Shown: positions 57,252 through 57,452 of the stretch, in pieces | Layout of the letters: each line of letters starts with the position of its first letter | Position numbering within the stretch: the first letter of the stretch is position 1 | Source of the DNA: Promethearchaeota archaeon | GTDB taxonomy: Archaea > Asgardarchaeota > Lokiarchaeia > Sigyniarchaeales > SOKP01 | Direction of reading: 5' to 3' | Length of the DNA: 64,000 bases | Assembly (NCBI GenBank): GCA_019058445.1 | Contig: JAHPZA010000009.1 | Coordinates: forward strand, 518,310-582,309 | Notes under the pieces: generated by a model | Told to the model about the DNA's origin: nothing | Database searches by the model: none | What the model saw: the letters and a program-made list of their open reading frames with translations, nothing else | Position numbers and translations under genes: made by a program

Positions 57252-57347
57252 ACTTAAATAATTCATTTTTAGCTCTAATATCAAAAAAATTTTTAATTTA
57301 CAAATAATTTAGATATTTAATTTAATTAATAAAGAGCCTCAAAATTT

Positions 57348-57452
57348 GCCTCAATAACTCAGCTCTTTTGAGCTAAGTTGAGTCAGCTCAGTTGGTAGAG
57401 CGTTGCCTTGGTAAGGCAAAGGTCGGGGGATCATAGCCCCCTTGAGGCTCCA
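57348..57452 (+). tRNA. tRNA-Thr(GGT) with a 29-nt BHB intron (57356-57384) at position 8/9; CCA encoded
   Basis: Acceptor GCCTCAA/TTGAGGC, D arm GCTC-AGTTGGTA-GAGC, anticodon arm TTGCC-TTGGTAA-GGCAA, T arm GGGGG-ATCATAG-CCCCC, T-CCA. The intron forms a bulge-helix-bulge. Confidence 0.88.

Follow-up and report, generated by a model that had tools for sequence, protein, structure and literature searches.

How can a tRNA be spliced when its intron begins only eight bases from the 5′ end? Most tRNA genes of Asgard archaea are interrupted, and introns next to the 5′ end create a twofold physical difficulty: acceptor stem and splice signal compete for one set of bases, and so short a 5′ exon cannot remain attached unaided. 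One such gene lies in a 64-kb stretch of a promethearchaeal genome (the window, by which we mean the whole 64,000 nt analyzed; the genome that holds it is denoted G000 and belongs to genus g1). Shortly before the gene stands a 9-nt leader element that we read, with a probability of roughly 0.6, as a stand-in 5′ acceptor strand, a placeholder used for splicing. The arrival and persistence of Asgard tRNA introns are described as still open in a 2026 preprint (bioRxiv 10.64898/2026.10.13.758758).

The tRNA-Thr(GGU) gene and its 8/9 intron

The gene occupies positions 57348–57452 of the forward strand and encodes tRNA-Thr with anticodon GGU, interrupted after base 8. ARAGORN made no tRNA calls in the 64-kb window, and the Rfam match (RF00005, 57385–57441, 39.4 bits against a threshold of 29) is confined to model positions 9–63 because the intron cuts off the acceptor strand; the gene was modeled by hand and with a custom BHB finder. 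Exon 1 (57348–57355, tRNA positions 1–8, GCCTCAAT) is followed by a 29-nt BHB intron at position 8/9 (57356–57384), which contains an inner hairpin (57357–57378) and the 3′ strand of the central helix (57379–57382). Exon 2 (57385–57449) carries tRNA positions 9–73 with the anticodon, and includes the 3′ acceptor strand TTGAGGC (57442–57448) and the discriminator U (57449). An encoded CCA (57450–57452) ends the gene, and all of these features lie on the forward strand.

An archaeal BHB was taken to have a 4-bp central helix, a 3-nt bulge on each strand that is cut behind its second base, and flanking helices in which h and/or h′ is at least 2 bp. The window intron has all of these. The finder places the cuts at p = 57355 and q = 57384, with a central helix (H = 4) of 57350–57353 (C3–A6) paired with 57379–57382, and 3-nt bulges AUA (A7-U8-A) and UCA (U-C-A9). 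The outer helix (h = 2) consists of G1:C11 and C2:G10, and the inner helix (h′ = 3) continues past one mismatch into 5 further pairs. Excising the intron in silico yields a full cloverleaf of −32.3 kcal/mol, and the product has the layout of intron-less orthologues, in which GCCTCAAT is joined straight to AGCTCAG (L002, L067, L183–L187, and metagenome contigs of run X4). Apart from its rare position, this is an unremarkable BHB intron of the noncanonical class. None of the ~25 Thr(GGU) orthologues found among 60 relatives has an intron at 8/9, their introns being elsewhere, and a census of Asgard tRNAs groups acceptor and junction introns together as "few" (bioRxiv 10.64898/2026.10.13.758758).

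The original prediction held that this BHB takes up tRNA positions 1–6, and the finder agrees: C3–A6 form the central helix, and G1 and C2 belong to the outer helix. Since the splice motif uses these positions, the BHB and the acceptor stem are mutually exclusive.

Several features of the gene and its surroundings are recorded here in their own right. A second tRNA gene, with anticodon CAU and two introns, lies at 57467–57590 and starts 14 nt past the Thr gene; this Thr–Met pairing is conserved across many relatives, so that cotranscription of the two genes is possible. The T-arm (57424–57440) has the loop ATCATAG. The usual archaeal form within this data set is TTCRANN (e.g., TTCAAAT), which other Thr(GGU) genes of the family have, while many relatives share the unusual type with ATCATAA or ATCAATC; the odd loop may represent an A54/U58 swap of the usual U54–A58 pair. 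The promoter region (57283–57335) is near-identical to that of L019 (G003, same genus) up to ~57319 and divergent beyond, and the tRNA type (GCCTCAA acceptor, ATCAT T-loop) resembles genera g5 and g11, not its own genus. An own-genus promoter before a g5/g11-type tRNA suggests that the Thr gene was replaced by recombination.

A copy of the 5′ acceptor strand in the leader

The leader element (GAGCCTCAA, 57334–57342, forward strand) ends 5 nt before the tRNA, from which it is separated by the spacer AATTT (57343–57347). Direct reading bears out the claim from which this study started, namely that the element is the exact reverse complement of TTGAGGCTC (57442–57450), so that the 3′ acceptor strand could form 9 bp with the leader vs. 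7 bp with exon 1 in the true acceptor stem. The leader helix is perfect, with no bulges. Its core, GCCTCAA (57336–57342), is a direct repeat of the 5′ acceptor strand, the two copies starting at 57336 and 57348 and thus 12 nt apart, and the preceding GA pairs with U73 and C74. From the copy through exon 1 and the intron to exon 2, the parts follow one another without a break over no more than 120 nt, on the 3′ side of a single promoter.

That promoter is predicted at 57283–57297 on the forward strand, where an A-run resembling a BRE (57283–57289) precedes a TATA-like element (TTTTTAAT, 57290–57297). More than 20 relatives share a conserved motif, AAAAAAATTTTTAAT, 33–50 nt before position 1 of their tRNA-Thr(GGU). 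Archaeal TATA boxes usually lie at about −26/−27 from the start. The conserved motif and this usual spacing together predict a start near 57320 (57319–57323, forward strand, ~23 nt past the TATA element), ~14 nt before the copy, which would place the copy inside the primary transcript.

Could such a short element be a chance match in an AT-rich leader? We give this reading almost no credence. Apart from the element's shortness nothing speaks for it: by the base composition of the genome, a given 7-mer of this make-up is expected ~1e-3 times in a 40-nt leader and the 9-mer ~5e-5 times, and across the genome GC-rich 7-mers are accompanied by an identical copy 8–40 nt upstream at a rate of 0.0023. 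Furthermore, the same layout recurs in five Thr genes as well as in a Ser and an Asp gene.

The Thr genes were found with a pattern for the junction of intron and exon 2 that ignores the leader. It matched 3/161 genomes of the class (G000 of genus g1; G134 and G160 of genus g11) and 5 metagenome contigs, giving five distinct 8/9-intron sequences from two genera and two metagenome contigs: the window, L217, G061 (= G160), L215, and G077 (= G134). The leader copy is kept wherever the intron is present, as had been anticipated, in 5/5 distinct sequences and always 12–16 nt upstream of exon 1. Four genes match their acceptor strand at 7/7 positions, and G077 matches at 6 contiguous positions. A Thr anticodon-arm scan of GTDB genomes returned the same arrangement in L094, where the acceptor GCCTCTA and a 34-nt 8/9 intron are accompanied by a second GCCTCTA 16 nt upstream.

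The copy also covaries with the acceptor, a further point of the original prediction. The window clade has GCCTCAA opposite TTGAGGC and the g11 clade GCCTCTA opposite TAGAGGC; the difference lies in acceptor pair 6:67 (A:U vs. U:A), and the leader copy changes likewise at that position in G061, L215, and G077. The spacer differs among homologues (AAATT, AGCAAATTT, TACAAATTT, TACCATAA), and in L217 all 9 bases of the window element are retained, while its intron, trailer, spacer, and the rest of its leader have changed. The flanks of G061 and G077 have diverged by 57%, against 1/7 changed positions in the copy (P = 0.036, Fisher's exact test); in the close pairs G000/L217 and G061/L215, which are too close for power, substitution tests give P = 0.35 and P = 0.41. 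The Thr cases comprise only two clades.

Leader copies are rare among Thr(GGU) genes that lack the 8/9 intron. Metagenome contigs of run X4 and many g11 genomes have neither intron nor copy, and in them the same acceptor is joined directly to exon 2. Among contigs of four DNA runs, relatives without intron and copy were present and no variant of the window's own population was found at the locus. The window locus combines covariation across two genera with matched controls.

Other tRNA families and the origin of the copy

We next consider all Rfam tRNA matches of five genomes, again with the leader ignored, among which 15 matches missing their 5′ side were examined. These added two genes, both in G134, in which acceptor bases pair with the first intron. 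The tRNA-Ser(UGA) gene has a 10/11 intron (H = positions 5–8) and an exact copy 13 nt upstream, and the tRNA-Asp(GUC) gene has an 8/9 intron and a copy 27 nt upstream that forms 6 Watson–Crick pairs and one G–U pair; both show the same predicted fold switch as the Thr genes (see below). Conversely, no leader copy was found in 37 control tRNAs of G134 and G160 with intact 5′ parts (0.075 expected), nor in ~28 Ser genes of genus g11 retrieved without the 10/11 intron. A broader rule, which we advance tentatively and at slightly worse than even odds, would be that an archaeal tRNA gene can retain an intron within ~10 nt of its 5′ end only if its leader provides a stand-in acceptor strand; copies that arise first, by small duplication, would then be the permissive state that determines where introns of this kind can be gained.

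A possible counterexample is tRNA-Arg(UCU) of G160 (L221, G160:C44:25072–25531), which has a short 5′ exon with a 30-nt insert at positions 7–9 that includes a 12-nt palindrome, and in which neither a leader copy nor a BHB could be recognized. The tRNA-Ala(GGC) gene of G000, whose Rfam match likewise spans positions 9–63, was rejected as a test case, its intron being at 15/16.

Leader copies without a 5′-proximal intron occur in ~2% of genes; examples are those in the Thr gene of G018, the Leu(GAG) gene of G000, and the Asp gene of G159, and a tandem 8-mer in Thr genes of Nitrososphaeraceae. Among Asp orthologues, a copy is found only in G159 (L323, G159:C6), where it is orthologous to that of G134 (L224/L306, G134:C59); the G159 intron lies in the variable region, and the 8/9 intron is restricted to G134. 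In G018 (L016, G018:C166) the leader sequence GCCCCTG, ~16 nt before tRNA-Thr(GGU), is a perfect Watson–Crick complement of the 3′ strand CAGGGGC, with which the true 5′ strand GCCTCTG forms a U–G pair instead; the sole intron of this gene is in the variable region. Scanning the whole of G000 for copy/exon/3′-strand triplets beside a T-arm returned only the Thr and Leu(GAG) genes. The latter (L031, G000:C1 ~127438–127563, minus strand) repeats its 5′ strand GTAGGAG at a distance of 11 nt, inside a stretch of GTAGGA-like units that resembles a microsatellite; the intron, at 15/16, has a BHB independent of the acceptor strand, and same-genus orthologues have no copy. The stand-in model leaves this copy unexplained. 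In two Nitrososphaeraceae contigs (L113, L069), an intron-less tRNA-Thr(GGU) follows a tandem copy of its own first 8 bases, with GCCTTGGT present twice in L113 and in a one-mismatch version in L069. An unrelated archaeon (L068, JABHXU010000021.1) has a 14-nt copy of the tRNA-Thr(GGU) 5′ end, GCCTCTGTAGCATA, ~80 nt before the gene.

The main rival to the stand-in reading is that the copy is a functionless scar of the DNA event that created or admitted the 5′-proximal intron, whether a local duplication or an integration with recombination; on this view, the original 5′ end may be the one now found upstream. The intron-less duplications of L113, L069, and L068 show that short repeats of this kind arise in other archaea, and a 5′ fragment of tRNA-Thr(GGU) upstream of an intron-gaining gene copy in Caldiarchaeum provides a precedent on a larger scale (PMC3293823). 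The position of the copy is also suggestive. In G061 it falls exactly at position 1 of intron-less relatives, 16 nt past a shared leader motif and 44–45 nt past the TATA element, although the argument is ambiguous for G077 and for G000, where, counted after 57311, the copy lies at +25, position 1 of relatives at +30, and exon 1 at +37. Likewise, the GA that precedes the window copy equals the −2/−1 bases of several orthologues, so the 9-bp match requires no selection, and the restriction of intron and copy to a single species (Ser) and to small clades (Thr) implies that both are young. However, a scar would not be expected to persist where the flanks have diverged to saturation (G061 vs. G077), nor to follow the change of the acceptor between clades. 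The Asp copies of G134 and G159 carry two different substitutions and in both pairing is kept through G–U. Moreover, no mobile-element DNA lies between copy and gene, and the gap is only 5–20 nt. We consider a functionless scar unlikely, while noting that origin and present function are compatible, since a preexisting copy may let such an intron be kept.

Predicted folding, proposed role, and known systems

The predicted structure of the five Thr genes switches with the presence of the leader in the proposed manner. Without the copy, the true acceptor stem has a pairing probability of 0.95–0.98, and the strict BHB fold is 6.2–10.2 kcal/mol less stable than the cloverleaf-like fold. Adding the copy makes the BHB fold the more stable of the two by 2.9–7.1 kcal/mol in 4/5 genes; the copy then pairs with the 3′ strand at a probability of 0.82–0.98 (0.96 for 57334–57342 with 57442–57450 in the window), and exon 1 pairs with the intron at 0.87–0.99. 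Overall, the predicted effect of the copy is to favor the splice-competent fold over the cloverleaf by a further 7–14 kcal/mol in 5/5 genes, and scrambling the copy brings the cloverleaf back in 3/5 (window, L217, and G077). The splice signal may also form unaided, because the hairpin of exon 1 and intron is transcribed before the 3′ strand.

These predictions also bear on a second rival, in which the copy is an alternative or even the true 5′ exon, cut at 57343|57344 and joined through the same 3′ cut (57384|57385) to give a mature 5′ end from 57336. The BHB finder does return such a motif (h = 4, H = 4), with an outer helix of GAGC and the D-stem GCUC and the same central-helix partner, and a T stands directly after the copy in L215 and G077, where the product would not differ from the normal one. 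An A takes this place in the window gene, L217, and G061, however, and their product would carry A8 against a near-universal U8; that U8 is not maintained here speaks against the copy being an exon. The motif is also without an inner helix, the nearer hairpin of exon 1 and intron competes with it, and copy and intron pair with zero probability in the folding. An exonic role is accordingly very improbable.

As a stand-in acceptor strand, the copy would act as follows. In the primary transcript it would pair with the free 3′ acceptor strand, removing the competition that draws exon 1 into the cloverleaf and leaving exon 1 free for the BHB. After both cuts, only the 2-bp outer helix would hold the 5′ fragment, because its other pairs go with the departing intron; the helix of copy and 3′ strand (7–9 bp) could then tether this tiny fragment (leader plus 8 nt) to the tRNA body until ligase joins U8 to A9. 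Following ligation, the true strand would displace the copy, and RNase P would finally remove the leader with the copy in it. Both enzymes are represented in the genome, RNase P by an archaeal RNA component (127.5 bits) and the splicing endonuclease by a gene at G000:C9:770595–770843. The window gene also shows features by which we provisionally recognize a stand-in, namely at least 6–7 leader nucleotides that can pair with the 3′ acceptor strand, a first intron that pairs with acceptor positions, and a copy that is conserved and covaries among the intron-bearing homologues. In spliced RNA of the g11 clade, the copy-paired fold and the cloverleaf are predicted to be near equal (−2.2 to +1.1 kcal/mol), and in the window clade the copy-paired fold is still 5.4–6.1 kcal/mol better than the correct cloverleaf. 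Refolding there would be uphill, so displacement must rely on tertiary contacts or enzymes.

If this reading is correct, one strand solves both problems of a 5′-end intron, the competition for bases and the attachment of the 5′ exon. The element would be a new kind of cis element in tRNA maturation, imposing a fixed order of splicing, refolding, and RNase P cleavage, and its architecture would help tRNA gene finders, which miss such genes. Should the broader rule for 5′-proximal introns hold as well, it would offer a first mechanistic approach to how Asgard tRNA genes gain introns. We found no description of a leader element pairing with the 3′ acceptor strand in the literature searched, which included PMC4090602, PMC4033280, and bioRxiv 10.64898/2026.10.13.758758.

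Several known systems share individual features with the window gene. Its intron resembles the noncanonical archaeal BHB introns of Thermoproteales (PMC4090602, PMC4033280) and of the Asgard census in its 4-bp central helix, two 3-nt bulges, and site outside the anticodon loop; for such introns the census cites Marck and Grosjean 2003 (bioRxiv 10.64898/2026.10.13.758758), and it describes a lineage with heavily interrupted tRNA genes, as here. At the Caldiarchaeum subterraneum locus (PMC3293823), the same tRNA species is involved and a copy of the 5′ part lies upstream of an intron-gaining gene copy. That fragment, however, is 1.8 kb upstream, past a recombinase-bearing element, and no processing role was proposed for it, whereas the window copy is 5 nt upstream and within the predicted transcript. 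The recombinase or element DNA that the Caldiarchaeum model of a mobile-element integration scar places between 5′ fragment and gene is absent here, the copy ending just 5 nt before exon 1.

Attenuators and riboswitches likewise choose between mutually exclusive helices according to a competing strand, but they control transcription or translation, whereas the window switch would order tRNA processing; the likeness is one of analogy only. The nearest published principle is that of the split tRNAs of Nanoarchaeum equitans and Caldivirga (PMC4090602, PMC4033280), in which flanks outside the mature tRNA hold exon pieces together for endonuclease and ligase, as proposed here. In split tRNAs the complementary leader and trailer are on two separate transcripts and themselves form a BHB, whereas the window gene has one transcript, in which the helper binds the 3′ acceptor strand of the mature tRNA without forming a BHB. 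A trans-spliced split tRNA was rejected on these grounds, the exons being on one unit and the helix of copy and 3′ strand not being a BHB. The window element therefore lacks two defining features of split tRNAs while sharing with them the principle by which exon pieces would be held together.
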